A DNA stretch of 47,088 nucleotides from Hominilimicola sp. Lineage in GTDB: Bacteria > Bacillota > Clostridia > UBA1381. Location: contig JBJEIU010000181.1 in assembly GCA_051877355.1 (NCBI GenBank), forward strand, positions 1-47,088. The letters are read 5' to 3'. Positions 2,431 through 47,088 of the stretch are shown here, piece by piece. A model generated the notes under the pieces. The model had not been told where the DNA came from and ran no database searches. It saw only the letters and a list, made by a program, of their open reading frames with translations. The position numbers were made by a program, and so were the translations under genes. Positions within the stretch are counted from its first letter, which is position 1; the number at the start of each line of letters is the position of its first letter.

Positions 2431-2931
2431 TTAAGCTATCAAAAGCTTTTTCTTCTTTTCTTCCCTATACATTGTCGCTTTCAGAATCGGATATACTATA
2501 AGCGCCAGCACCGCATTAAATACAGCCGTTGGCAGGGCGTCATAAAGAAGCATATCCGTGCTGACTGACAATGTTCTTAAAACATCGTACACAATCTCCA
2601 TTACACCCGACGCCAGAAATGTCCAGACAATTGCCTTTGGCAAATTACCGACATACCGCGGCTTTTTACGCAACGAAAAAACAATTATTGAGCAGTACAC
2701 ATACAACAATACTGTCCCTGTAAATTCGCGCCCGCTGAGTGCGCCCATTGCCACGGCGCATATTATACTGATTGTAACAGCGCTGCGGAATTCATTCTCC
2801 AAAAGCATAACGCATACCACATACGCCATAACCAGAGAAGGCACAGCCCCGAAGACATGCACTCCGGAAAGAATAACCGTCTGAATAAGGAAAATAATGA
2901 ATATCCAAAGAAATATTTTAAAATTTCTCAC
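2431..2931 (-). CDS. mreD: Rod shape-determining protein MreD
   Basis: 166-aa polytopic membrane protein between mreC and pbp2. Confidence 0.8.
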   Translation of the reverse strand: MRNFKIFLWIFIIFLIQTVILSGVHVFGAVPSLVMAYVVCVMLLENEFRSAVTISIICAVAMGALSGREFTGTVLLYVYCSIIVFSLRKKPRYVGNLPKAIVWTFLASGVMEIVYDVLRTLSVSTDMLLYDALPTAVFNAVLALIVYPILKATMYREEKKKKLLIA

Positions 2932-2948
2932 CTTATATCTCCATTCAA

Positions 2949-3773
2949 TTAATATATTCCGTTAATGACTAACACTTCATACAGCTTATCAAAATCCACA
3001 AGCGGCTCTACCGTCGCATAATTCAGATTACCCATAGCGTCTGAATTTATCTCGCGTATTGCTCCCACCATAAGTCCCGCGGGATATACTCCGCCCGAGC
3101 CTGAGGTTTCAAGCAAATCGCCCACAATGAGGTTTGAACCCTTGTCAATAAATGTCATCTTGCAGTAACTTTGGCTATAAAGTTCATCGTCACCCTCAAC
3201 AACGGCAACGTCACCCGTTCTGGAAATCTTCACGCCCATTGCGTTATCGGGATTAAGTATTGTGGAAACTATCGACCATGTCGGACCTGTTTCCACCACC
3301 TTGCCCACAACACCGTCAGGAGTGATTACCGCGTTGCCCACGGCAACGCCCGCAAGAGAACCCTTGCTTATCTGTATGGTATCATACCAGTTGTTTGAGG
3401 AATATGCTATTACGGACGCCGCCACAGTGGAATATTGCTCCATACTCTGGCTCAGTTCAAGAATTTCCTTTAATCTCTCATTTTCCTCACGATAATTTGT
3501 TACGTCCTTATTCTGTTTTTTTAGTTCATTTATTTCGCTTACAAGCTTTTCATTTTCGTCCTTGTAGCTTTTCATTTCACGGATAAAATCCGTTGTATCC
3601 TTAACCTTGTTCGTTATATATGCCACGCCGTTCTGAAACGGTGAAAACACCGTACGCAGCACCTTGGATACAGGATTTGCGCCGCCAAAATGTGCTATTG
3701 CCGCGCATATAAGCACAGCCGCGGTCACAACTGCCGCCACCTGCACCCCTCTTTTTCTGAAAAATGATGACAT
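2949..3773 (-). CDS. mreC: Rod shape-determining protein MreC
   Basis: TM, coiled coil (ENERLKEIL), KGS..G..VITPDGVVGKV, TSGSGGVYPAGL. Confidence 0.95.
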   Translation of the reverse strand: MSSFFRKRGVQVAAVVTAAVLICAAIAHFGGANPVSKVLRTVFSPFQNGVAYITNKVKDTTDFIREMKSYKDENEKLVSEINELKKQNKDVTNYREENERLKEILELSQSMEQYSTVAASVIAYSSNNWYDTIQISKGSLAGVAVGNAVITPDGVVGKVVETGPTWSIVSTILNPDNAMGVKISRTGDVAVVEGDDELYSQSYCKMTFIDKGSNLIVGDLLETSGSGGVYPAGLMVGAIREINSDAMGNLNYATVEPLVDFDKLYEVLVINGIY

Positions 3774-3849
3774 CTTTTCAAAACCTTCCGTTTAAAATCT
3801 TAACAATCATTTCTGATTTGGGTATCCCCCAATCGCGGGATTTTCCTGA

Positions 3850-4851
3850 TTATTTTGCCGCTTCCAGCAGTTCCTTTATGTTATCCAGCGCCTTTCCTGT
3901 GCCTATAACAACACAATCAAGCGGGTATTCGGCAACATGAGTAGGTATCTTTGTAACCTCCGTTATAAGTTTGTCCAGCCCCTTTATCAGCGCGCCGCCG
4001 CCGGTAAGGGTTATTCCTCTTTCCATAATGTCCGCCGCAAGCTCTGGCGGTGTATTTTCAAGTGTCAGCTTTATAGCCTCAATCATTTCGTCAACATTCT
4101 CGCTGATGGCTTCTCTTATTTCACTTTCCTTTATCTGCGCCGTCTTGGGAAGTCCCGTGGACACATCGCGTCCTCTTACCTCATATACTGCTTCCTCGTC
4201 GTCCTCATATGCTGAGGCGATTGAAAGCTTTATTTCCTCCGCCATCTTGTCGCCGATATTGATATGGTGTTCCTTCTTTAAGTAATTTATAATGGCGCTG
4301 TCAAGCGCGTTACCCGCAATCTTGATTGACTTTGACGCAACAATTCCGCCAAGAGATATAACTGCAACTTCTGTTGTGCCGCCGCCGATGTCTACAACCA
4401 TATTGCCCGTAGCCTCGTTTACGGGGAGTCCTGCGCCCATTGCAGCTGCCATAGGCTCCTCAATAAGAGCCACCGCCTTTGCGCCCGCACTTATAACCGC
4501 TTCTTCAACGGCGCGTCTTTCGACCTCCGTTATACCTGACGGTATACAAACCACCACTCTCGGCTTAAAGACACTGCTAACATTTGCCTCCTTGATAAAG
4601 GACCTTATCATAGCCTGCGTAATATCAAAATCCGCTATAACACCGTCCTTCATAGGGCGCACTGCCACAATATTTTCGGGCGTTCTGCCAATCATCTCAT
4701 TTGCGGCATTGCCCACGGCAAGCACCTTGCCCTCATACTTATCTATAGCCACAACAGACGGCTCTCTTACAACTATTCCCTTTCCGCGCACATATACAAG
4801 CGTGTTTGCAGTTCCCAAGTCAATTCCTATATCCTTTGAAAAAATCCCCAT
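3850..4851 (-). CDS. mreB: Actin-like rod shape-determining protein MreB
   Basis: [32 protein letters not shown] motifs. Confidence 0.97.
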
Positions 4852-4865
4852 GTCATTTTCTCCTT

Positions 4866-5456
4866 TTATAAAATCTCCAATTCAAATTCTTCTTCAAGAG
4901 TATCCGCAAGCGCACTTACGGGAAGTCCCACCACGTTGAAGTAATCCCCGTCTATTTTTTCAATCAGCATTGAACCCAGTCCTTGTATACCATAGGCTCC
5001 AGCCTTGTCCATAGGCTCGCCAGACTTAATATACGCGCGGATTTTCTGTTCTGTAAGCGTCTTGAATTTTACCTCTGTCCTTACGCTGCTGCATACAGTC
5101 TTTCCGTCGCTCATACGCATAACGCAATAGCCTGTGTACACTTCATGCGTACGTCCCGAAAGCGATGACAGCATTTTTTCCGCACCGTCAGCTCCGTCAG
5201 GCTTGCCGAGTATTTTTCCGTCAAGTGTCACAATCGTATCAGCGGCAATTATAATCGCCTTTTTATTTTTTATCAGCATCTTGGCCGTTGCGGACGCTTT
5301 CAAAAGCGCAAGCTCCTGCACATAAAGACCGACAGGTATATCACGCGTGACGGAGCCTTCATCCGCATCCGAAACTACTATGCTGAATTGAAGTCCCATT
5401 TTCTCCAGAAGCTCTTTTCTTCTCGGAGACGCGGACGCAAGTACAAATTCTGTCAT
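4866..5456 (-). CDS. maf: Maf nucleotide pyrophosphatase
   Basis: [37 protein letters not shown]. Confidence 0.96.
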
Positions 5457-29284: not shown

Positions 29285-31927
29285 ATGGAAGACGCAAAAA
29301 ATATAGCAAAAAATTATAATCCGGCTGAGTTTGAGGACAAGCTGTATAACGAATGGGTTGAAAAGGGCTATTTCCACGCTGAGGTGGACAAGAACAAAAA
29401 GCCTTTCACAATCGTTATTCCGCCCCCGAATGTAACGGGTCAGCTTCATATGGGACACGCACTTGACGAAACATTGCAGGATATTCTTATCCGTTACAAG
29501 AGAATGCAGGGATATTCCGCGCTGTGGGTACCCGGCACAGACCATGCCGGTATCGCTACGCAGATTAAGGTTGAGGCTGAGCTTCGTGAAAAAGAGGGTC
29601 TTACACGCTACGACTTGGGACGTGAAAAGTTCCTTGAAAGAGTTTGGGACTGGAAAAACCAGTACGGCAGCAGAATTATAAACCAGCTTAAGAAAATCGG
29701 CTCGTCCTGCGATTGGGACAGAGAACGCTTTACTATGGACGAGGGCTGCTCAAAGGCTGTTAAGGAGGTTTTCGTAAACCTTTACAACAAAGGTCTTATT
29801 TATCAGGGCTCAAGAATTATAAACTGGTGTCCGCACTGCATTACCGCGCTTTCGGACGCGGAGGTTGAGCATGCAGAGCAGGCAGGTCACTTCTGGCACA
29901 TCAAGTACCCGATTAAGGACAGCGACGATTTTGTTATAATCGCCACAACACGTCCCGAAACGCTGTTCGGCGATACGGCTGTAGCCGTTAACCCCGAGGA
30001 CGAGCGTTACAAGGATTTGATAGGCAAAATGCTTATTCTTCCCCTTGTAGGACGTGAAATCCCCGTTATCGCAGACGAATACGTTGACAAGGAGTTTGGT
30101 ACAGGCTGCGTTAAGATTACGCCTGCCCACGACCCCAACGACTTTGAAGTAGGTCAGCGCCACAACCTTGAACAGATTAAGGTTATGAACGACGACGCAA
30201 CAATGAACTCATACGCGGGCAAGTATGAGGGCATGGACAGATACGAATGCCGCAAGGCAATGGTTAAGGATTTGGAGAACCAAGGACTTCTCGTTAAGGT
30301 TGAGGATCACAGCCACAACGTAGGTCAGTGCTACCGCTGCGGAACAACTGTTGAGCCTATCATTTCAAAGCAGTGGTTCGTTAAGATGAAACCGCTTGCA
30401 CAGCCTGCAATTGACGCTGTAAAGAACAAGGAAACAGTATTTGTTCCCGAGCATTTTGAAAAGGTATATTTCCACTGGCTTGAAAATATCAAGGACTGGT
30501 GTATTTCCCGTCAGCTGTGGTGGGGACACAGAATACCCGCATTCTACTGCGACGACTGCGGCGAGATGGTCGTAACAAAGGAAGATAAGGCAATATGCCC
30601 GAAGTGCGGAAAGGAAATGCGTCAGGACCCCGATACTCTTGACACATGGTTCTCGTCGGCGCTGTGGCCGTTCTCAACGCTCGGCTGGCCCGACAAGACG
30701 GAGGAGCTGGACTACTTCTACCCCACAAGCGTGCTTGTAACAGGCTACGACATTATCCCATTCTGGGTAATGAGAATGATGTTCTCCGCCCTTGAGCATA
30801 CGGGCGAGGTACCGTTTAAGCATGTGTTCATACACGGTCTTGTACGTGACAGTCAGGGCAGAAAGATGAGTAAGTCACTGGGCAACGGTATTGACCCATT
30901 GGAAATAGTTGAAAAGTACGGCGCGGACGCGCTGCGTTTTACGCTTGCCACAGGCAACGCGCCGGGCAATGACATGCGTTTTTACATTGAGCGTGTTGAG
31001 GCGAGCCGTAACTTTGCAAACAAAATATGGAACGCGTCACGCTTTACGCTGATGAATTTGGACATTACCGAAAACAAACTGCCCGATTTAGCGGAATTAC
31101 AGCTTGAGGACAAGTGGATTTTGTCAAGATACAACGAGGTTGTAAAGGTTGTTACTGAAAATCTTGACAAATTTGAACTGGGCGTTGCCCTGTCAAACCT
31201 GTACGACTTTATATGGGAAAACTTCTGCGACTGGTATATTGAGCTTGTAAAGCCGAGATTGTTCGACAAGGAGAACCCGACGGCGAAAACGGCGCAGTAT
31301 GTGCTGACATACGTGCTTTCAAATACAATGAAGCTTCTGCACCCGTTCATGCCATTTATTACCGAGGAAATATGGCAGCACCTCCCCCACGAGGGCGAAA
31401 GTATAATGATAAGCAATTGGCCTGAATATGACGAGAAATTAAACTTCCCTCAGGACGAGGAAAGCATGGAGCTAATAATGCAGGCAATCAGCGCAATCAG
31501 AAACCGCAGAGCAGAGATGAATGTTCCGCCGTCAAAGAAAGCAAAGGTTATTATAGTTACAGCCAAAACCAACGTATTCACGCAGGGAACGGCGTTCTTT
31601 GAAAAGCTTGCGTCCGCAAGCGAGGCGATTGTGCAGACAGATAAGAGCGGCATAAGCGACAATGCGGTTAACGTGGTTGTTCCATCAGCCGAGATTTATC
31701 TGCCTCTTGATGAGCTTGTAGACAAGAGCAAAGAGCTTGAACGTCTTAACACTGAAAAGAAAAAGCTTGAGGGCGAAATTAAGCGTGTTGAGGGTAAGCT
31801 CGGCAATCCGGGATTTGTCAATAAAGCCCCTGCAAGGGTTGTTGACGAGGAAAGAGCCAAGGGTGAAAAATACAAGGAAATGCTTGAAAAGGTACTCGAA
31901 AGCATTAAATCAATGGAGAATGTGTAA
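29285..31927 (+). CDS. valS: Valine--tRNA ligase
   Basis: [33 protein letters not shown]-terminal coiled coil. Confidence 0.98.
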
Positions 31928-37497: not shown

Positions 37498-37628
37498 ATT
37501 ACCGCCTCCCGATAATACCACGACTTGTAAAAAGTCAGGTGCAATTTTCATAGAAATACTGCCCATCATTTTCATTTTATCATATTTTTTCTGATATTAC
37601 AATAGGATATTTGAATTTTATTCAACAC

Positions 37629-37655
37629 AAAAGACTGCCGTATTGGCAGCCTTTT
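37629..37655 (-). terminator. Terminator closing the phage-like module
   Basis: AAAAGACTGCCG-tat-TGGCAGCCTTTT just past the amidase stop. Confidence 0.75.
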
Positions 37656-37660
37656 CTGTA

Positions 37661-38461
37661 TTATTCATTCAGTTTTCCCGCAAGGCGGTAGATAATCACG
37701 CAGGTCCATAGCTTTGTATCATCAAGATTAAGTCCGCTGCCCGTGCCGACAATTATTCCGTTATCCACGCACCACTGCACAGCCTCTCTTGCCCATTCGG
37801 GCATATTGCTGTCTATATAATTATAAATCATTGGGTTTTCAAGCTTATAAACCTCATTCTGCAAAACATCTACCCTTGCGGTCTGATTTGCTATCAGCTG
37901 TTTCAATTCCTCATACTGCGACATTGTAAGCTCCTCCTCCATTTTTTCATCAATTATTGCATCTCCTATCGCTTTTGCTATTGCGTCCGCTCCGACGCTG
38001 TGATATAAATCCGCATCGGATTTTGTGTCCACAAAGCACACCTCAACAAGCATTGCGCGCGCGTCTGAACGACGTACCACATACAGGTTTGAACCGTCCT
38101 TTATTCCTCGGTTTACAAATCCCAGCTCCGCCATATTTTCGCACACAAGCTCCGCCTGTGAAAATTTTTCTCCGTTGTAGGTGTACACCTCTGTGCCGCG
38201 TCCGCCGCCGCTGTTGAAATGTATTGATACAAACAAATCAAGTGGCTGCGCGTTTGCCATTGCGACAATCTGACTTAAATTTTCACTCACCGTTGAAGCA
38301 CGGTCATTGGTACAGTCCACTACCGTCACGCCCTTACCGCGAAGATAATCCATAAGCTTGTAGCCGATTACCCTTGTTTCATCACTTTCGTTCAGGTATC
38401 CCACCGCGCCGCTGCCTATAGTACCGCTTACGGTGTGTCCGCAGTTTATTCCTACTATCAT
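37661..38461 (-). CDS. N-acetylmuramoyl-L-alanine amidase (Amidase_3) with C-terminal SLH-like domain; endolysin/autolysin
   Basis: NCGH, E, SIHFN, G.EV, LVEVCFVD; C-terminal PEWAREAVQWCVDNGII.G; start ATG 38461 after AGGAG. Confidence 0.9.
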   Translation of the reverse strand: MIVGINCGHTVSGTIGSGAVGYLNESDETRVIGYKLMDYLRGKGVTVVDCTNDRASTVSENLSQIVAMANAQPLDLFVSIHFNSGGGRGTEVYTYNGEKFSQAELVCENMAELGFVNRGIKDGSNLYVVRRSDARAMLVEVCFVDTKSDADLYHSVGADAIAKAIGDAIIDEKMEEELTMSQYEELKQLIANQTARVDVLQNEVYKLENPMIYNYIDSNMPEWAREAVQWCVDNGIIVGTGSGLNLDDTKLWTCVIIYRLAGKLNE

Positions 38462-38477
38462 GCTAATCACTCCTGTA

Positions 38478-38505
38478 TATTATATGCGCCGATACAGCTT
38501 TATGT
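38478..38505 (-). promoter_or_regulatory. SigmaK-like promoter directly upstream of amidase
   Basis: AC-N17-CATATAATA in the holin-amidase gap. Confidence 0.5.
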
Positions 38506-38906
38506 TACTGCTCATTTTTATCCCTCAGCTGCAAAAGTATATTTTTCAGTGCAGGCGGCATTTTCTGCGATACTGCGGCAACATTTTCAAGTATACTTAT
38601 CCCCTCGTTTGCTATGTAAAACATGATTACCATTTCACGTATTGCAACTACTCCGCCTGTCACTACCTGTGTTATATTCGCAAGCGCCACTATCACAAGT
38701 ATTGTGATTTTTTTCAGTATTCCCTTATAGCCGGTTTCGCTGGATACACTTTTTGTATACACCGCCTTGATGACGCCCGTTATATAATCCAGCATCATAA
38801 GACCTGCCAGCGCCCACAATATTGTATCCCAGTGACCAAACAGCATAGCCACTATTCCGCCCGCTATGCCGACAAATACACTGATAGAATTAAATATCTT
38901 CTCCAT
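38505..38906 (-). CDS. Phage holin (holin_4_1 / toxin secretion-lysis family)
   Basis: LDYITG..KA..SS..G.KG..KK, FYIANEGISILEN, P..LK..L.QL. Confidence 0.93.
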   Translation of the reverse strand: MEKIFNSISVFVGIAGGIVAMLFGHWDTILWALAGLMMLDYITGVIKAVYTKSVSSETGYKGILKKITILVIVALANITQVVTGGVVAIREMVIMFYIANEGISILENVAAVSQKMPPALKNILLQLRDKNEQ

Positions 38907-38925
38907 CTCCTCTGCTCCTTTTCAT

Positions 38926-40344
38926 TTATTCTGTTATTTGTATTTCCTTATCGTTGATACATAGTTTTCCGTCTGAATTTATTCCTATTACGTTCTCTCC
39001 CATTGTAATCTGATTTGCCGTCAGGTCACCCGTAAACAGCATTTTTCCGTCTGTGCCGATTTGGACAGCGGTATTACCGCTATTGTCCATAATCCTGCAC
39101 GTAAATTCTCCGTTCAGATTTCCAAGCTGCAATTTCAGCGCACCGCCGTTTGTTATTTTTATCATATCCGACACTATGGATACCTCACCTGCCGAGGTTG
39201 TAACGGACAGACCGGAATTTGTTATAGTCCCCGAAACAGAAGATGCCTTTACCTTGCCGGTGCTTGTGGACACCTTGCTGTAATTTCTTGTAAGCTTGCC
39301 CATCTGATTGAGATAGAAAAACAAATCCTTTTTTACCCTGCCGATTGATATAACGGTACTGTCGCTCTGATACGGATAGTATTCCAACTTAATTATACGC
39401 TCTGAAATTTCATTTCCGTTGTCAATTACGGTAACATAATCTCCCAGATGTACCTGTTCCGTTTCATCGTATTCCGCAAGCTTTGATATATCCGCATATG
39501 TTCCCGTTATATTGACGCACGGTATATCGATACGTTCGCTGTTTCTTATGTCAAATTCCCAAAGTGCGCGGTTCATTATCTGCTCAGGCTCTATATAATC
39601 AGAATAATCACGGTAGCCCTCGCGCACGCCGTATACAGACGCGTTCGCACTCTGAATATACTGGCAGCCGCCGTTTACGCTGCCTATATGCATATCGTCC
39701 TTGCCGTATGGATACAGACGCGTCACCATGTCCGTTATATCGCGATTAATGGAAATATTCTGCATATTCTTAGTCAAATCAAGACGGATATTTGTATTTT
39801 GTCCGATACGCTCCACCAACGCAATTTTGTAATTATCCGCATATATTTCGCCCTTGCCGCAGTTTTCTATAACTGTCTTTACCACATCAAACGGGTTCGT
39901 CTTATCCTCCGAAAAGAAATCTATTTTAAAACCGTCATAGTCCACGCGGCGCATGCCAAGGCTTTGAAGTTCACCGTCGGTAAACAACGAAAATTTTGTA
40001 CCGCTGAAAGCCTTTTTTAGTACGTCAACAGGCATTACACCCATCATATCAGGCATATTCTGAATATGAATATTGGGCGCGTCGGCATTATATACATGAT
40101 GACATTCCGCATCAAGCACCGCCTTATCGCCCCTATTCCTTACAGCTTTGATTATTCTGTATGCCTGGCCCTCGCACACCACAATTCTGTTTTCGCTTAT
40201 AAGCTCCGACTTTTCATCAAGCGGATAGGAAAATTCAAGCATACGCATGCCATTTATTTCGTGCGTCACGCGCACGCTGTAGGCATCATTAAGCACAATA
40301 CCCTTTTCAAATCTTGTGCTGTCATACGGAAAAAGCTTAAGCAT
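38926..40344 (-). CDS. Phage tail tip protein (Tal / prophage endopeptidase-tail family)
   Basis: EING...LEFSYP, KNMQNI, VTRLYPYGKD, LGDYVTV; follows Dit; start ATG 40344 overlapping Dit stop. Confidence 0.82.
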   Translation of the reverse strand: MLKLFPYDSTRFEKGIVLNDAYSVRVTHEINGMRMLEFSYPLDEKSELISENRIVVCEGQAYRIIKAVRNRGDKAVLDAECHHVYNADAPNIHIQNMPDMMGVMPVDVLKKAFSGTKFSLFTDGELQSLGMRRVDYDGFKIDFFSEDKTNPFDVVKTVIENCGKGEIYADNYKIALVERIGQNTNIRLDLTKNMQNISINRDITDMVTRLYPYGKDDMHIGSVNGGCQYIQSANASVYGVREGYRDYSDYIEPEQIMNRALWEFDIRNSERIDIPCVNITGTYADISKLAEYDETEQVHLGDYVTVIDNGNEISERIIKLEYYPYQSDSTVISIGRVKKDLFFYLNQMGKLTRNYSKVSTSTGKVKASSVSGTITNSGLSVTTSAGEVSIVSDMIKITNGGALKLQLGNLNGEFTCRIMDNSGNTAVQIGTDGKMLFTGDLTANQITMGENVIGINSDGKLCINDKEIQITE

Positions 40345-41185
40345 AGCCAACACTCCAATCCGTATCATTCAGATTTACGCCATACATAAACTGCGGCGTA
40401 AAGGATATGCTAAAATTAAGAGTATCTGAATTTGAATTTCCGATATACAGCACATTATCTCCGGGCAGCAGTTCGGGGAAAGCGCCCGAAACCATCACGT
40501 TTCCCTTTGCGTTTGTCACTGTCTGCTTTTCGCAGTCCACTACCGCGTCACCGTCCGCATTAAAGTCAAGTGTTCTTCCGTTCATACGCAGCGTCATGGC
40601 GGACGCATTGCCTGTTATGGAGATAACGGGGCTTATAGGTCTTTCCCCAAAATTAACTATATGCCTGCTCTGTCCGTTTGCCGCGCTGAATATATAAAGC
40701 TCATCAAAATCAATGGGAATTGTATCATCAAGATATACCGCATCTGTATCAAGCAGCGGTCCATCAGTTCCAAAGGTGCATGAGCCAAAAGGCTTTACAC
40801 GGAATGATACCTCCAGCACCGCCTTTCTGCCATCATGCTCAGGCATATAAATAATTTCATCAGTTATTTTGCCGTGCCACACCACAAGCGGTATATCGTC
40901 AAAAATAAGATTGCCTCTACCTGTAAGCCAGCGCGAAAGCTCCATAAGCTTTCTCTGCATTTTCGTCAGGCTTTGAGCATACAGACTGAGCGTAACAACA
41001 AAAGTCCTTTCATAAAAATGCTCGCGTCCATCAGGATTTGACAAGGAAAAGTCATATTCACCGTCACGGCAGGGCAAATCAACCGTAAAGTTCTTCGCCT
41101 CGGGACGTATCGGACGCGATTTTGTTCTGACCGTCACATCAAATTCTGATGAATGATGATCTTTGAATTTAAATCCGTTTCTCAT
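40337..41185 (-). CDS. Distal tail protein (Dit)
   Basis: GFKF...HS.EF, P.RDG.YD, WL.G.G.LIFDD.P, F.VKPF, FPEL.PG.N; follows TMP. Confidence 0.82.
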   Translation of the reverse strand: MRNGFKFKDHHSSEFDVTVRTKSRPIRPEAKNFTVDLPCRDGEYDFSLSNPDGREHFYERTFVVTLSLYAQSLTKMQRKLMELSRWLTGRGNLIFDDIPLVVWHGKITDEIIYMPEHDGRKAVLEVSFRVKPFGSCTFGTDGPLLDTDAVYLDDTIPIDFDELYIFSAANGQSRHIVNFGERPISPVISITGNASAMTLRMNGRTLDFNADGDAVVDCEKQTVTNAKGNVMVSGAFPELLPGDNVLYIGNSNSDTLNFSISFTPQFMYGVNLNDTDWSVGYA

Positions 41186-41196
41186 TGTCTGCCTCC

Positions 41197-42948
41197 TTAA
41201 TAATAGCTACCATATGCAATGCTCAATCCCACTCTGTTTTTCAGTGCGTCAATAATATCCGCGCTGTTGCCGCTTATACTTATGTTTCTGTTGTCGCTGT
41301 AAGAGTTTGAAGATATGCTTATAGACTTTATAGCGCTTATAGTCTGAGCAAAAAGCGACGTGATCGTACTTTCCATACTCTCTATGTCACGGTTAATTCC
41401 ACTGACTATATTCTCAAGATTTATTCCCGATTTCTCAATGGTGGCAAGCAGATACTTCTTATTATCCTCAATAATATCGTAGTTTTCCTCTAAATCGGAA
41501 ATCGTTTGGGTGTGACTTTTCTGCATCTGATACATTTCTTCCTCACGTCTGATTTTCTTCATTTCCTCCTGAAGAGATTTATACTTGTCCATACCTCGCT
41601 GTGTGACAGCGCCCTTATATATGTCAAGCTGATGTGAAATTTCCGCCTTTGAGGCTGTTCTGTCCTGTACCTCCCATTTTTCGGAAAGCGCGTTTTCCTC
41701 GTCCTCAAACTGTTGCTTCAGATTGCTTATATACCGTTTCTGACTGTCAAGCAGCTTGTCAATCTCGTCCATTTTCGCTTTATACAAATTAAGCTGCGCC
41801 TCCATGCTGTCATCGCGGTATTCCTGCCAGCCCACAAATCCGCCGTCATACATCTGCTGTATACGCTCAATACTGCGCTCATAGAATTTTACGGGACTGT
41901 CGCCCGCCTCCTCCCAGTCGTCATAGGTATCACGTATGTTTTTCCAGTTCTCCGCGTCGCTTTGCCATTTCTCATATACCGCATAATTCTTTTCGTTTTC
42001 AAGCTTGCCTATTTTCAGGTCTACACCTGCCTTATATTCATAGAAATCGTCCCAGATTTCCTTTATCTCCTCAGCGCTGTACTGCGTGGACACAATCATA
42101 TCCGACACCATAGCGTTGTAATTATAAAGCTGACGCTGATATGCGTCTATCTGCTCCTGAACGCCCATATCATTCACTTCCGTCTGATACTTTATCCATG
42201 TGTCGGAATTTCTTTTATAATCAGAAAGAGCCTCTTCGTTTGCCTGCTTTTCTGATTTTAGAATTTTTTCCTGTTCGGCGATTACCTTTTGCTGCGCGGC
42301 GAAAATCTCCTCCTCAATTTCCTTTACGACTTCACTGTCATAGCTGAACTGCTCCATGAGCCTGTTCCACCATTCCAATTCCTCCGCAGGCGACATATTA
42401 TGCGTCTTTTTATAATGGTTAAGGTCAGCCTTTTCAATCTCAAACCACTCGTTATTCTTTCCGGAAGCATAATGCGGCAGACCAAGACCTGTCATTATAC
42501 TCTTTGTTTCCGCGGCTGTATATACCCTGTCTCCCGACGAGAGCGGAACGACAACGTCACGCCCCGAAAACATCATAAGCCGTCCGTTATGCTCAATAAG
42601 CTCCCTTGGGTCGCCAACGCCCCTTTCGTCATTTACAACGGCAAGTCCCTCATGGGCATTACGCGTACCTGCCGCAAGATTTGGCATCCCCGACACGTTA
42701 TACTTTACGGAAATAGTCACAGTCTTATCTTGAAGACTGTTTATATTCGCCCGCGCGCTGTTTACGCCGGCGGCAGTTTCATCAGCCGCGCTGATTTTTA
42801 TCTGCGCCTCTTTTCCGTCAAAATCATTCATTATTGTTCCAGCTGATATATTTAGATTTGTAAGCGCGGCATTCGCACTGTTAAGGGAGTCAATAAGCCC
42901 CGACGCATCGCCTGTAATACTTACCGAAAGATTGGCAGCCTCTGCCAT
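41197..42948 (-). CDS. Short tape-measure-like protein (583 aa)
   Basis: TMP-like N-terminus L.V.I.GD.SG; AAGT/YASG motifs; helical C-half; sits between chaperone and Dit. Confidence 0.75.
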   Translation of the reverse strand: MAEAANLSVSITGDASGLIDSLNSANAALTNLNISAGTIMNDFDGKEAQIKISAADETAAGVNSARANINSLQDKTVTISVKYNVSGMPNLAAGTRNAHEGLAVVNDERGVGDPRELIEHNGRLMMFSGRDVVVPLSSGDRVYTAAETKSIMTGLGLPHYASGKNNEWFEIEKADLNHYKKTHNMSPAEELEWWNRLMEQFSYDSEVVKEIEEEIFAAQQKVIAEQEKILKSEKQANEEALSDYKRNSDTWIKYQTEVNDMGVQEQIDAYQRQLYNYNAMVSDMIVSTQYSAEEIKEIWDDFYEYKAGVDLKIGKLENEKNYAVYEKWQSDAENWKNIRDTYDDWEEAGDSPVKFYERSIERIQQMYDGGFVGWQEYRDDSMEAQLNLYKAKMDEIDKLLDSQKRYISNLKQQFEDEENALSEKWEVQDRTASKAEISHQLDIYKGAVTQRGMDKYKSLQEEMKKIRREEEMYQMQKSHTQTISDLEENYDIIEDNKKYLLATIEKSGINLENIVSGINRDIESMESTITSLFAQTISAIKSISISSNSYSDNRNISISGNSADIIDALKNRVGLSIAYGSYY

Positions 42949-42950
42949 AG

Positions 42951-43142
42951 CTATACCTCCTCTCCGTAGAACATTCTAAGATGTTCATCAGTATATTCCT
43001 CCGTGTCCTCCTCAAGACCGTCCAGCAGTCTGAAAAGCACCCACGGATTTTGCCTGCCCACTGCGTCAGGCAGCAGATGGTGACACTTCAGGAGTAAAGG
43101 ATATATGTCCCGAAGCGCCCCGCTGCCGCCTGACGTTACTCG
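42951..43142 (-). CDS. -1 frameshift extension of tail assembly chaperone (gpGT-like)
   Basis: Slippery A AAA AAC (43142-43148) then open -1 frame RVTSGGSGALRDIYPLLL...RMFYGEEV*, stop 2 nt before TMP ATG. Confidence 0.8.
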   Translation of the reverse strand, partial: RVTSGGSGALRDIYPLLLKCHHLLPDAVGRQNPWVLFRLLDGLEEDTEEYTDEHLRMFYGEEV

Positions 43143-43405
43143 TTTTTTGAGGACAGCGCATCAACATAGAAGCCCCATAATGTGATACACATTTTTGACC
43201 GCTCGCTTATGTCAAGGGAATTGATAACGTCCTGCGTAGCTTCCGTTCCCTCGAACATATAATCCACCGCGTCACGGCAGATATTAAGCGGACCTTTTTT
43301 TGTATCGTCATTATGAGCGTCATTTATTATACACATCGCTTCAAAGTCAAATGGCTTTGAAACGTATTTTGTTTTATCCTTTGTAAATGTCAATGTATGC
43401 TGCAT
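43136..43405 (-). CDS. Tail assembly chaperone (gpG-like)
   Basis: 89 aa between tail tube and TMP; ends ...SKNE on a slippery heptamer. Confidence 0.8.
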   Translation of the reverse strand: MQHTLTFTKDKTKYVSKPFDFEAMCIINDAHNDDTKKGPLNICRDAVDYMFEGTEATQDVINSLDISERSKMCITLWGFYVDALSSKNE

Positions 43406-43418
43406 ATTTTATCTCCTT

Positions 43419-44018
43419 TTACGCTGTCTGCGGATAATAATTCATATCCGTAAACCATGCTTCCTCAAACGTCTCACGTGTTAAGCCCTCGGGCAGGTCG
43501 CTTTCGTCAAAGTACGCGTAATAATTGTTGTCAAAATCACGCTGTACGGCTGTATATGTAGCCTTTGCGGTCTGCTTGTCAACAGAGCCGCTTGACGGCT
43601 TTGTCTTGCCGCCCACGTTTGACGCGAAGCTGTATGAGCCCTTATAATATCTGACATAGCGGTATGAGCCGTCAGACTTAAGAATTCTCCATGCCACACC
43701 GAAGTAGACAGTCTTTGTGTCGTTGCCCACCTCGACAACGCCGTTTTTCTGCTCAAGTCCGCGCCACAGCGCGTCAACCTCCGGCGGAATATCGGCATTT
43801 GTGATGTCGTGACCAAGCTTTTCAATATAGCTTGATGTTTCGTACGCGCCGTTGTCCGCGTCAAAAATGTCAGAGCCGCCCGCGTCTGTGGGCGCAATCT
43901 CAACTGTACCTTTCAGATTATAGGGCGCGTCATACGTTGCGCCCTCAGCGGTGTCTGTAAGCACCTTGAAAAAGGTATACTTGTCCACACCAATTGTTGG
44001 TAAAGGTTTCTTTGTCAT
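43419..44018 (-). CDS. Major tail (tube) protein
   Basis: 199 aa, IGV, ADNG.YE, YFGVAW....DG.YRY..YYKG, W.F near C-terminus (phi13-like siphovirus MTP pattern). Confidence 0.85.
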   Translation of the reverse strand: MTKKPLPTIGVDKYTFFKVLTDTAEGATYDAPYNLKGTVEIAPTDAGGSDIFDADNGAYETSSYIEKLGHDITNADIPPEVDALWRGLEQKNGVVEVGNDTKTVYFGVAWRILKSDGSYRYVRYYKGSYSFASNVGGKTKPSSGSVDKQTAKATYTAVQRDFDNNYYAYFDESDLPEGLTRETFEEAWFTDMNYYPQTA

Positions 44019-44035
44019 AAATTTCCTCCGTTCCT

Positions 44036-44135
44036 GACTTCCATAAATACGCTGAATACTTCGTTAAACGAAGCTTGAAGTATACAAAATACGTCTGCGC
44101 TCCGTTTGCCTTGTCTCAGCGAATTTCTGAAAGCC
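44036..44135. repeat. 100-bp imperfect palindromic REP/MITE-like element
   Basis: Outer arms GACTTCCATAAATACGCTGAA / CTCAGCGAATTTCTGAAAGCC; inner arms AAACGAAGC / GCTCCGTTT; innermost GTAT / ATAC. Confidence 0.6.
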
Positions 44136-44181
44136 ATATATACTAATTTGTTGTTTCGTCTTAAGGTCGGATTTTCGTTTT

Positions 44182-44523
44182 TTACAAGCTAAAATACTTC
44201 TGAAATCTCATAGTTCTGTGATAAATTTTATCATTCTTTTTCGGGACGTCCATGGACATTTCCCTTGTCCAGCCGTCCCTTTCCATTGCGTCGTTTACCT
44301 TTATTGAAAGCTCACCGCACTCCTTTGGAATATCTGACCATATATCCACCTGAACATATCCGTTTTGGATACATTCGCTGTTGTCGGCAAAAAATGCGCC
44401 GCACTCCGTTACATTGTAATAGCTTATAACGGGAAGATTGGTAAAGCGTTCGGGATACTGGTATACAAGCGTACAATCAATGGCGGACAATGCCTTTTCC
44501 GCTTCAATATTAACGTCAATCAT
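44182..44523 (-). CDS. Tail terminator / completion protein
   Basis: 113 aa, P.ISYY, VQVDIW, V..AM...GW.R, HRTMRF; precedes MTP. Confidence 0.75.
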   Translation of the reverse strand: MIDVNIEAEKALSAIDCTLVYQYPERFTNLPVISYYNVTECGAFFADNSECIQNGYVQVDIWSDIPKECGELSIKVNDAMERDGWTREMSMDVPKKNDKIYHRTMRFQKYFSL

Positions 44524-44544
44524 GCAAATCCCTCCTTAGCATAT

Positions 44545-44877
44545 TCAGCCTATTGCCGCAGCAATCGCATCCGCCATTGCGGCAAGGACAGCGTTGCTGT
44601 TTCCTATAAGCGACGGCACAAGGTATGGCTGCGGCGCCATTTGTGACGTGCCAAACTCCACATATGCGGCGTAATCGGTGCTGGCGGAAATTTCCGCCCT
44701 GTTGCCCTCCGTACTGGTGCTTATAGAGTCACGCAGTGCGCCTGTATCCACAGGGCATATTGATTTTGCGTTCTCGCATACCGCGTCTGCGCCGGCGGCG
44801 ATTATTTCACTTATGCTGCCCTCTATCCTCTGCGCCGCCTCCGCCAGACCGTTATCATATGAAATACTAACATTCAT
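44545..44877 (-). CDS. HK97 gp10-like neck/tail component
   Basis: AK..CPVDTGALRDSI, YAAYVEFGT..MAPQPYL.P; start ATG 44877. Confidence 0.88.
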   Translation of the reverse strand: MNVSISYDNGLAEAAQRIEGSISEIIAAGADAVCENAKSICPVDTGALRDSISTSTEGNRAEISASTDYAAYVEFGTSQMAPQPYLVPSLIGNSNAVLAAMADAIAAAIG

Positions 44878-45184
44878 TTTCCACACCCCGCATTACAACC
44901 GTCATGCCAAATGACCATATTTCTGTCTTAACAATCATATACCATGCGCCGCCGAAGGACACATATCTGCCGTTTTTCATAAGGTCGGTTTTGTCGCAGT
45001 ACAGCTTGTAGCTTCTGCTCTCGTCAAGACCGTATGTTTTGCTTTCCGTATCGTCCGAACAGGGCTGAATGTCGCATATCACATTTCCGAGCAGTGTTTT
45101 TTCGCCCTTTGCGTCATAGCTGTTTTCGCCCTGCTCGTATACAGCTATTTCCGTATCGTAAAATCTGTTAAACGGATTTATCAT
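44867..45184 (-). CDS. Head-closure (stopper) protein
   Basis: ~105 aa beta-rich, CDIQP...YG, position after adaptor; start ATG 45184 after AGGAGG. Confidence 0.65.
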   Translation of the reverse strand: MINPFNRFYDTEIAVYEQGENSYDAKGEKTLLGNVICDIQPCSDDTESKTYGLDESRSYKLYCDKTDLMKNGRYVSFGGAWYMIVKTEIWSFGMTVVMRGVENEC

Positions 45185-45539
45185 TGCTCTCCTCCTCTGC
45201 TTCAAGGTCGGACGGCACTTTGACCTGACGGCTTACAAAGGGCCTTAACCGCGCCGCATACGCACTGAGGAAATCGTAATTCTCCTCGCAGTATTCCACA
45301 CGTCTTTCGCCCTCCGTAATTGATTTAACGCCCGCGTTTTTATTGCCCGCAAAACGCTCCGCCACAAGCGTCGGGATAAAGCTTACAAGCTGACGAGGAA
45401 GCACCTCCAGACGGCAATAGGAAAGCACCGCATCCGTCACTTCATCAATCAGAAGCATGATGAGCTTATCACTTTCATCGTTCTCTATTCCCAGAAGCAC
45501 CTTTGACGCTTCCAGAATTTCCGTTTTAGTGTCCCCCAT
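45168..45539 (-). CDS. Head-tail connector (SPP1 gp15-like adaptor)
   Basis: K.LLGI..D, V.SYC....LP..L, VKSITEGER.V.Y. Confidence 0.82.
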   Translation of the reverse strand: MGDTKTEILEASKVLLGIENDESDKLIMLLIDEVTDAVLSYCRLEVLPRQLVSFIPTLVAERFAGNKNAGVKSITEGERRVEYCEENYDFLSAYAARLRPFVSRQVKVPSDLEAEEESNDKSV

Positions 45540-45565
45540 AATATTTCACAGCCTTTCTTTAAGAA

Positions 45566-46405
45566 TTATTCGCCGTCACTTTCAGTTGTGGCGTTCTTGA
45601 ACACATAAATTGCGTCTTTCTTGTTATCAAGCACAAAAGCGTCATAATAAACTCTGCCCTCAACAAGCCAGCCGTTGATGCCCGGAGGATTGTCGTGGAT
45701 TTTGTATTCCGAAAGCTTTACAGGCGCAGTTGTGGCAGCCTGATTTGTGATAATAAATTCCACACCTTCGGGGAAATATGACTTCGGCACAACTATTACC
45801 GGAATACCATCGATAGTGCCGACTTGACCCTTAATCAGAATATCCTGCGACATATCGCCGTTTCTGATAAAGCTTGAATCCTCCTTGATGTTCTTATAAA
45901 AATTGCTTGACACGAACGCAGTGCAGCCTGTAAGCGGCACATTGTTTTCGATAAGTTCACTCGCGCCCGTAAGGAACGCGTCATAAGCGGTTGTCTTTGA
46001 GATTGTGCCCGTTATAGTAGTGCCCGCGCCCTCAACGATTTTTCCGAAACGGTACTTGTCAATTTCGGGTATTACCACCTCACGAAGCTGTCTCTGCAAC
46101 GCCGCGCCTGCCGCGTTTGACATCTGGGTATCGTTGTATGTTCCTCTGTCAATGGTGAACGTAAAGCTTCTGTCCATTGACATTGTAAGCTCCTGAACAG
46201 TGTTGTCAAGTTCCTCAGGAGTTCCGTAACGGCTTGTGCCGGTAACAGAATAATCATTCATCGGCGCTGTCGGCACGCTGTACACGTTAACCGTCTTTAC
46301 GCCCACAAAATCATAATCGTTGTTAACCGCAGGCGAGGTCATTGACTCTCTCGTGAATTTTTCATCAATTTTCTGAGCATATTTGCTCGCATAGTTTATT
46401 GCCAT
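45566..46405 (-). CDS. Major capsid protein (N4-gp56/P22-coat-like family)
   Basis: INYA.KY...IDE.F, F.GVKTV.V, DRSFTFTID, VIPEIDKYR, G.IDG, PPGINGWLVEGR.YYDAFVL. Confidence 0.88.
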   Translation of the reverse strand: MAINYASKYAQKIDEKFTRESMTSPAVNNDYDFVGVKTVNVYSVPTAPMNDYSVTGTSRYGTPEELDNTVQELTMSMDRSFTFTIDRGTYNDTQMSNAAGAALQRQLREVVIPEIDKYRFGKIVEGAGTTITGTISKTTAYDAFLTGASELIENNVPLTGCTAFVSSNFYKNIKEDSSFIRNGDMSQDILIKGQVGTIDGIPVIVVPKSYFPEGVEFIITNQAATTAPVKLSEYKIHDNPPGINGWLVEGRVYYDAFVLDNKKDAIYVFKNATTESDGE

Positions 46406-46431
46406 TTATATCAATCCTTTCCTTTTATCAA

Positions 46432-46980
46432 TTACATTCCCAGACCGTTTAAAAACGGGTCGCTTACCTGTTCCTTTTCTGTTGAAACCTTTGGCAGCGT
46501 GCCTTTAAGACGCTGGGAAAGTCCCGCCTCAATCGCTTTCATGTATTCCGCCTTAAATGACGCAATGTTTTCAAGCATTGTTTCTTTGTCGGCGTCGGCA
46601 ACCATTCTCGAAAAGTTTACGGGAAGGTTCTGCGCGGCAAGCTCCTTTGCCGCTTCAAATTCAGCTCTTTCGCTGACATACTGCTGCCTTTCCGTTTCAA
46701 AGTCCTTCTGACGTCTTTCCATTTCAACTCTGGCTCTTTCCTCTGAGGACATTGTGGCAAGCTTTGCCGCATCCTCGCGCTCTGAGGCAATTCTCGTTTC
46801 AACGTCCTTATCCCATGAGGACTTTGCTTCATTTAACGCCTCGTCTACATAGCGGGCAATGAGGGATTTTAATTCTTCGTTTTCCTGTCCCTCATTTTTT
46901 TCGGGAACATCGTTTTTGTGTCCCTGATTTCCCTTTAGAGACTCATCTTTTAGTGTCCCCTCATTCTTTTTCTCGTACAT
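46432..46980 (-). CDS. Capsid scaffolding protein (DUF4355-like)
   Basis: Charged helical protein, AKLA.MS.EER, L...LP..F, RLKG..P, DPFL.GL; directly upstream of MCP. Confidence 0.82.
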   Translation of the reverse strand: MYEKKNEGTLKDESLKGNQGHKNDVPEKNEGQENEELKSLIARYVDEALNEAKSSWDKDVETRIASEREDAAKLATMSSEERARVEMERRQKDFETERQQYVSERAEFEAAKELAAQNLPVNFSRMVADADKETMLENIASFKAEYMKAIEAGLSQRLKGTLPKVSTEKEQVSDPFLNGLGM

Positions 46981-47013
46981 GTTTCTGCTCCTTTCTTTTG
47001 TGCATAGAATAAA

Positions 47014-47042
47014 TTGTTATGACTTTTACTGTCCCTTTATTC
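47014..47042 (-). promoter_or_regulatory. SigmaE-like promoter upstream of scaffold gene
   Basis: GAATAAA-N14-CATAACAA(T), same layout as at 20014-20042 and 24580-24609. Confidence 0.35.
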
Positions 47043-47088
47043 CTGTGTACTTCCTATTTTTTCGTTAAGCATACGTTCCCTCGCCGCA
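47037..47088 (-). CDS. C-terminal end of upstream gene, probably portal protein (partial)
   Basis: Open frame ...AARERMLNEKIGSTQE*; identity inferred from position only. Confidence 0.4.
   Translation of the reverse strand, partial: AARERMLNEKIGSTQE

Follow-up and report, generated by a model that had tools for sequence, protein, structure and literature searches.

The window analysed here, the whole 47,088-nt contig C181 of a Hominilimicola genome (G000), ends in a run of phage head, tail and lysis genes (37661–47088) that raises the question of whether it is the late end of an ordinary prophage or a particle locus that the host itself maintains. A preliminary description of the window favored the latter, a vertically inherited particle resembling a gene transfer agent (GTA) that the mother cell would produce during sporulation and set free when it lyses. 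Our analysis indicates that the locus is almost certainly domesticated. The reading that we prefer, with a probability of about 0.6, is that a former temperate siphovirus was reduced to a 13.2-kb repressor-plus-virion cassette that is inherited with its hosts and would likely yield short-tailed particles carrying random host DNA after DNA damage, most likely as a GTA. The observations of the preliminary description were thus partly confirmed and its interpretation partly supported: host maintenance, vertical inheritance and the capsid stand, and production in the sporulating mother cell is unsupported for the virion genes.

A complete cassette between two host flanks

The last 96 bases of C181 match the first 96 of contig C12 (L001) with three differences, and a contig of the sister species (G019) spans the C181/C12 junction. 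Beyond 47088, the element continues on the minus strand of C12 with genes encoding an SPP1-family portal (45–1358), the large terminase TerL (TIGR01547, “PBSX family”; 1355–2629), a 72-aa remnant of the small terminase TerS without a helix-turn-helix (HTH) domain (2589–2807), and a 66-aa Cys4 zinc-finger protein (2821–3021). Next come a sigma-A promoter with TATCT-N5-AGATA operators (3133–3105, minus strand) and, on the plus strand, a divergent CI-type repressor gene with an S24 domain (3257–3883) and a host M16 peptidase gene (3917–5167). The complete cassette comprises 13,215 bp and 18 genes. The preliminary description had cautioned that an integrase could lie at the far end, outside the window. 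No lysogeny or replication module lies upstream, neither the cassette nor either host flank holds an integrase gene, replication genes or an early region, and no att direct repeat was found, the longest repeat between the flanks being 11 bp and AT-rich. The locus consists, as expected of a GTA, of phage-derived virion genes free of replication and integration genes, and it lacks the integrase, att repeats and replication genes that mark a temperate prophage or a capsid-forming satellite.

Within the window, the core virion and lysis set is uninterrupted, as first described, with 13 minus-strand genes running from 46980 to 37661. The 3′ end of the portal gene (47037–47088, remainder on C12) is followed by genes for the scaffold (DUF4355; 46432–46980), the major capsid protein (45566–46405) and four neck proteins, which are a head-tail adaptor (45168–45539), a head closure protein assigned from its position and a weak PHROG match (44867–45184), an HK97 gp10-like neck/tail completion protein (44545–44886) and a tail terminator (44182–44523). 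The tail genes encode the phi13-family major tail (tube) protein (43419–44018), a tail assembly chaperone that has no family match and was assigned from position and frameshift (43136–43405), its 65-aa −1 frameshift extension (42951–43148), a shortened, 583-aa tape measure (41197–42948), the distal tail protein Dit (40337–41185) and the tail tip protein Tal (38926–40368). A holin (Phage_holin_4_1; 38505–38906) and an Amidase_3 endolysin (37661–38470, likely start ATG near 38461) complete the module. A terminator hairpin (37625–37659, no strand assigned; fold −20.5 kcal/mol) closes the cassette on the pan operon side, and the likely ATG of the first pan gene is 133 bp away. The 13-gene module contains no moron, HNH or separate receptor-binding gene. 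The chaperone frameshift, which had been called working, has an A AAA AAC slip site and a −1 frame that is kept in nearly all copies, and it is probably used.

Inheritance and selection across seven genera

The cassette is a fixture of its genus, with the portal present in 22 of 23 other genomes and the gene order kept in 19 of the 20 regions around the best capsid matches; the twentieth (G003) is an ordinary prophage. The 23 carriers in the genus fill 356 of 368 gene slots; contig ends account for 11 gaps, and the twelfth is a holin missing in G013. The repressor abuts the M16 gene in 20/23 carriers. No clean empty site was seen: the non-carrier G003 has evidently lost the cassette by deletion, because an 85-aa broken adaptor relic remains beside its M16 gene. 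Six further genera of the family, which we take to be placed in Monoglobales/UBA1381, also carry the cassette, often with extra fiber-like genes after Tal, and several genera gave no match (e.g., 0/10, 0/12 and 0/11 genomes). Carrier records include Candidatus Ornithomonoglobus intestinigallinarum (L079), of a Clostridia genus. Of 182 listed open reading frames in the flanks, 83 were scanned, and 81 of their proteins had no recombinase match, the flanks consisting mostly of host metabolic genes; the two recombinases each occur in a single genome. Contigs from four sequencing runs held no junction skipping the module, which is not evidence of absence. The runs listed as holding the module include no RNA run, and the best share was 0.09.

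A tree of TerL plus portal, from which rows with truncated, fused or unrelated TerL or portal were left out (among them G005, G034, P013, P030 and P078), splits 41 cassettes from 8 prophages of the same hosts by a branch with support 100, and all seven genera are monophyletic. On this tree the cassette copies have a single origin. Congruence with the species tree, proposed as a check in the preliminary description, is substantial and incomplete: a 15-gene cassette tree has 13/25 splits in common with rpoB (random mean 0.28). It recovers 9 of 13 strong rpoB splits and has 12/17 splits in common with the neighboring M16 gene, none strongly contradicted. The valS gene (29285–31927 of the window; L131–L159) was rejected as a host marker, as it conflicts with rpoB itself (3/25 splits common), which suggests valS transfer or binning errors.

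Selection on the cassette, which it had been proposed to measure, is purifying. Pooled ratios of nonsynonymous to synonymous substitution (dN/dS) are 0.06–0.18 in nine pairs, the tenth being saturated, and the cassette is intact at dS above 1. Cassette dS is near that of host genes; between G000 and G019, for example, it is 0.58 compared to 0.57 (M16), 0.49 (valS) and 0.30 (rpoB). In this pair, the genes under the strongest constraint include portal, capsid and TerL (dN/dS 0.03–0.07). Vertical inheritance and purifying selection within a host clade, as in GTAs, are therefore found here, with deep nodes partly unresolved or conflicting. Codon usage proved uninformative as a sign of amelioration, the distance to the host being 0.068 for the cassette, 0.048 for prophage contigs and 0.053 for host contigs (median).

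Several features that had been taken as host marks do not bear on domestication. The insert resembling repetitive extragenic palindromic (REP) sequences or miniature inverted-repeat transposable elements (44021–44152, no strand assigned) is real, with partial copies on three other contigs of the genome (2–3 copies in all), and it is recent and lineage-specific, because neither the sister species nor related contigs in 4/4 sequencing runs contain it. The 12-mer shared with a host core gene is explained by chance, as 159 12-mers recur between the module and the rest of the window, against 110–156 for ten ordinary host stretches. The pan operon does adjoin the module in this genome, but elsewhere it is the downstream neighbor only in G019, so this adjacency is no mark of domestication; the conserved neighbor is the M16 peptidase gene at the other end.

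Reduction from a phage and control of the operon

Related full prophages reside in the same hosts, and their portal, capsid and tube proteins are 60–86% identical to those of the cassette. G000 itself contains pieces of at least two of them on C138, C261 and C34 (L002–L004), with 69–84% DNA identity to the cassette tube, chaperone and capsid genes. These prophages encode a 148–156-aa TerS, a ~500-aa protein after the portal that has no annotation of its own and occupies the usual minor-head position, tape measures of 1,500–2,000 aa, and replication-region genes upstream. The cassette TerS aligns only to residues ~64–147 of the related phage TerS, and TerL motifs are intact in 39/42. A TerS without a DNA-binding domain is reported for all known GTAs (PMC11841831), and the cassette combines it with an intact large terminase, as that paper describes for GTAs. 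The tape measure corresponds to the C-terminal ~600 aa of its phage relatives and is 574–584 aa long in most of the close homologues listed. Its maximal hydropathy, by a simple window average, is at most 1.34 in 40/41 cassette copies versus 1.42–2.07 in six phages, and its structure model consists of long helices (predicted local distance difference test (pLDDT) 68). The Tal model (pLDDT 82) shows a gp27-like hub, prolonged at the C-terminus by a short beta-rich part, and no enzyme domain; its best fold matches are the monocin tip (9j1k), Listeria gp18 (3gs9) and the 80alpha baseplate. The zinc-finger protein has only a weak PHROG match and matches to unnamed Atlas clusters. A gene in a prophage replication module on C371 (L227, 457–669) is 85% identical in DNA to the gene encoding it, pointing to an origin in a phage early region and recent exchange.

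Transcription would start from a TTGACA-17-TATAAT promoter that lies within 300 nt before the zinc-finger gene in 34/39 copies, being displaced by inserts or cut at a contig end in the others. This promoter is a perfect sigma-A consensus and is covered by repeated TATCT-N5-AGATA palindromes, the predicted repressor operators, which in G015 are retained though an inversion has moved the repressor 6 kb away. In one clade (L037, L038, L044 and L045), GC-rich REP-like palindromes add 200–450 bp to the operon leader and leave the promoter unbroken. RecA-triggered cleavage of the repressor is likely from known CI and LexA biology, because the repressors keep the cleavage motifs (Ala-Gly site and Ser/Lys motifs in 37/38). 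In most other genera, the promoter spacer instead holds a box similar to the LexA box consensus and resembling one upstream of lexA in two of these genera. Canonical lexA is present in 16/17 genomes of those genera versus 1/21 in this genus, that one being divergent; the correlation is counted as one evolutionary event because kin are not independent. It appears that canonical lexA was lost genus-wide, with the sister genera keeping it. Where lexA is kept, the LexA-like boxes make control by a host regulator possible; this genus has only the phage-derived CI operator. An operator scan of this genome (an 87%-complete assembly) found clusters only on C12 and no further regulon member. The combined promoter-operator pattern gave 30 matches versus 0 in the control, which, as the pattern was built from sites already seen, measures specificity and not discovery; five of the 30 are at unrelated loci.

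The transcript leader contains a small hairpin followed by a U-rich run and in ~9 species shows complementarity to a spacer that lies 6 kb downstream, ahead of the tube gene (44157–44177, minus strand, in the window), which co-varies with the leader in a subclade. In six species, 18–20 of 21 positions pair around a 5–6-nt leader bulge, though the sequence itself differs. The mean energy is −20.2 kcal/mol for cognate versus −14.4 kcal/mol for non-cognate pairs (0/20,000 permutations, a figure that kinship and the loss of the spacer from some clades inflate), and the cognate pair ranks first in 7/21. The complementarity is absent in other clades.

A fiber-like gene follows Tal in some copies and in others is unlinked, among host genes. 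The unlinked gene lies behind a sigma-A promoter and the cassette operator in seven genomes from two lineages (G005, G006, G010, G012, G014, G018 and G026), six of which have the full palindrome and one, G005, a spacer half-site. In this genome, two fiber-like genes on C171 (L224, 1–2274) face a second CI gene, with a GTCCC..GGGAC operator, beside a host gene. A similar repressor-plus-fiber unit is found in G007 (L273).

A candidate gene transfer agent and its rivals

The cassette is GTA-like in every sequence test that gave a clear outcome. In the mechanism that we favor, activated RecA would trigger self-cleavage of the CI-type repressor, and of LexA where the genus keeps LexA, and the single operon would be transcribed, together with unlinked operator-bearing fiber genes in some species. 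A TerS without its DNA-binding end would let the headful-type TerL start anywhere on the chromosome, making the packaging of random host DNA highly probable. Holin and amidase would lyse the producer cell, and the particle would bind a relative and release its DNA. Because the tape measure has lost its hydrophobic segment, DNA entry would need uptake by the recipient's ComEC, as in the Rhodobacter capsulatus GTA (RcGTA), whose DNA is released outside the inner membrane and requires competence proteins (PMC7296036). ComEC is present in 5/5 genomes checked. Gene transfer by the particles is less assured than packaging, and our confidence in it equals that in the reading as a whole.

Several points weigh against this reading. 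Particles, packaged DNA, transcription and transfer are predictions from the sequence, and the particles may self-package the 13-kb cassette. They may also deliver nothing, given that deletion of the first hydrophobic region of the TP901-1 tape measure abolished infection (PMC5099701). Two of the six phage controls for hydropathy are themselves weak (1.42 and 1.59) by the simple window average. ComEC is widespread and is kept also by the genome that lost the cassette. The fiber locus on C171 has a repressor and operator different from those of the cassette. The inheritance record is not seamless: the 15-gene cassette tree contradicts 2/13 strong rpoB splits, only 8/26 splits are common to the valS+rpoB and cassette trees, and one species lost the cassette (G003), one lacks the holin (G013) and one has a frameshifted tape measure (G004). 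Gene exchange with phages evidently continues, because in one genus the tube genes fall within the prophages.

The best surviving rival, improbable yet deserving weight, is that the cassette is a weapon or decoy similar to PBSX of Bacillus subtilis, whose damage-induced particles would pack host DNA without delivering it and would kill related strains or adsorb to them, the target range being set by fibers that can be swapped. PBSX is ~28 kb and has a contractile tail. The cassette is similarly Gram-positive, host-fixed, head-bearing and, judging by its repressor motifs, probably damage-inducible under CI/SOS-type control, and its TerL and portal fall in the “PBSX” (TIGR01547) and SPP1 families. 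PBSX is induced by mitomycin and packages 13.4-kb host fragments without injecting them (PMC12946183), an outcome that a tape measure without a hydrophobic segment would also suit. In addition, the fiber genes vary and sit under different repressors, and the best fold match of Tal is a monocin tip. Against this stands the strong constraint on portal, capsid and TerL, which a tail-only weapon would not need. Nor was a toxin domain or one for killing seen in either Tal or the tape measure, and the latter is probably ill-suited to pore-based killing without a membrane segment. The cassette also differs from PBSX in being 13.2 kb, non-contractile (no sheath among its 18 genes) and descended from Clostridial siphoviruses that persist in the same hosts. 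Monocin, the F-type tailocin of Listeria (PDB 9j1k), is likewise a domesticated non-contractile tail with a similar Tal hub, but tailocins lack capsid, portal and terminase, all three of which the cassette keeps under strong selection.

It is unlikely that the cassette acts in anti-phage interference or satellite-like parasitism, being co-induced with resident prophages and spoiling or hijacking their assembly through its HTH-less TerS, short tape measure and shared fibers. The closeness of its portal, capsid and tube proteins to those of prophages in the same hosts would allow this, as would the zinc-finger gene's near match on C371; but with no integrase, origin or replication gene it has nothing with which to spread as a satellite, and a full virion and lysis set exceeds what interference needs.

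The proposal that sporulating mother cells make the particles and free them on lysing fares worse still and is very unlikely to hold. The hosts do have Spo0A (5/5) and sigma-K-like genes (5/5, just under the family cut-off). Of the sporulation-sigma-like promoters noted earlier, the module shows no excess over shuffles for sigma-E, F, G, H or K, and what partly holds is one perfect sigma-K-type site, AC-N17-CATA-N3-TA (38478–38505, minus strand), 25 nt before the amidase gene. This site is perfect in 5/27 copies (0.15 in shuffles) and matches at 7 or more of 8 positions in 13/27 (2.9 in shuffles), compared to 0–1 perfect sites for other cassette genes. It is located downstream of every virion gene, and the conserved operon promoter is the sigma-A type described above, under repressor or LexA-like operators. 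A perfect site precedes 20/1,418 host genes, and among the 18 scanned are dpaA and YmaF together with housekeeping genes; sigma-K targets include dpaA and the amidases of mother-cell lysis (PMC3789822). The amidase may therefore moonlight in spore release or mother-cell lysis from its own predicted, second promoter. Finally, an ordinary or decaying prophage with its early region merely off the contig, as the normal Firmicute siphovirus gene order and the related prophage pieces in this genome might suggest, is refuted by the two host flanks in hand, the position conserved genus-wide beside the M16 gene, the selection that has kept the cassette intact and the single-origin tree.

The preferred reading, that of a GTA, is illuminated by comparison with known systems. 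FpGTA of Faecalibacterium, described as only the second system resembling a GTA, after PBSX, to be known from Gram-positive bacteria (PMC12946183), likewise has a gut Clostridia host in whose genus it is near-universal. As in the cassette, its TerS shows no obvious DNA-binding domain and replication genes are lacking; its fiber genes occupy a second locus, which may hold for the cassette in some species. By its description, FpGTA is podovirus-like and has its lysis genes in locus II (PMC12946183), whereas the cassette has a siphovirus-type set (tube, chaperone frameshift, tape measure, Dit and Tal), keeps its lysis genes together with the virion genes and encodes a CI repressor. RcGTA (PMC7296036, PMC11841831) resembles it in a ~13–15-kb siphovirus-derived core cluster, a short tape measure, an HTH-less TerS, unlinked fiber genes (which the cassette may have in some species) and delivery possibly via competence uptake, and differs in having an unrelated phage ancestor and host phylum and in being under host pathways (stationary phase and quorum sensing), whereas the cassette keeps its ancestral CI switch. 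Candidate GTA clusters from mouse-gut Coprocola/Butyricicoccaceae (bioRxiv 10.64898/2026.07.08.737213) are 12.7–14-kb terminase-plus-structure clusters of gut Clostridia without integration or replication genes; they are set apart, as described, by other host families and as candidates from single metagenome-assembled genomes (MAGs) with no test of vertical inheritance. By gene content, the cassette belongs to none of the FpGTA, PBSX and tailocin families. A literature search, which most subscription papers lay beyond, found no paper on it, and the accessible supplements of PMC12946183 make no mention of this host group.

More tentatively, the findings can be joined into a new, independently domesticated siphovirus-type GTA of Gram-positive gut bacteria, whose ancestor phages would still circulate in the same hosts so that the steps of domestication could be read. 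In this doubtful but specific sequence, the early region would have been deleted, fusing the CI switch to the late genes; the DNA-binding end of TerS and the gene at the minor-head position would have been lost; the tape measure may have been cut to a third, losing its membrane segment and making delivery competence-dependent; and the fibers might have been relocated to unlinked loci, swappable and still governed by the same repressor. The CI operator would have replaced the LexA box when the genus lost lexA, the co-varying leader-spacer pairing across 6 kb could be a feedback switch, and the endolysin may have been lent to sporulation through the sigma-K promoter.

If the preferred reading is true, the cassette represents a further independent GTA origin that differs in morphology and is fixed in gut Clostridia of seven genera; most GTA-like packaging in gut viromes is without identified genes (PMC12946183). 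With close phage relatives present at full length in the same genomes, the path from phage to host tool can be compared directly, as few cases allow, and one carrier record (L063, Lachnospiraceae bacterium MD329) is not labeled a MAG, which may open induction and packaging to tests in culture. Such cassettes are also counted as viruses in catalogues: cassette-type portals (at least 70% identity) occur in IMG/VR only on 4–10-kb pieces.

Two further clusters were observed. A rearranged minimal cassette (L216, G034:C14; TerS, TerL, chaperone, short tape measure and Dit, then portal, capsid and others) has a TerL only 26% identical, which suggests terminase replacement or a separate domestication. 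In another family of the same order, 11/12 genomes with a capsid match hold a podovirus-like cluster (TerL, portal, a scaffold-like protein, a 345-aa capsid and a ~790-aa virion protein; L118 (G038:C1), L119, L120 and L121), possibly a second domesticated, FpGTA-like element, and a CI-like gene adjoins it in two of the four regions.

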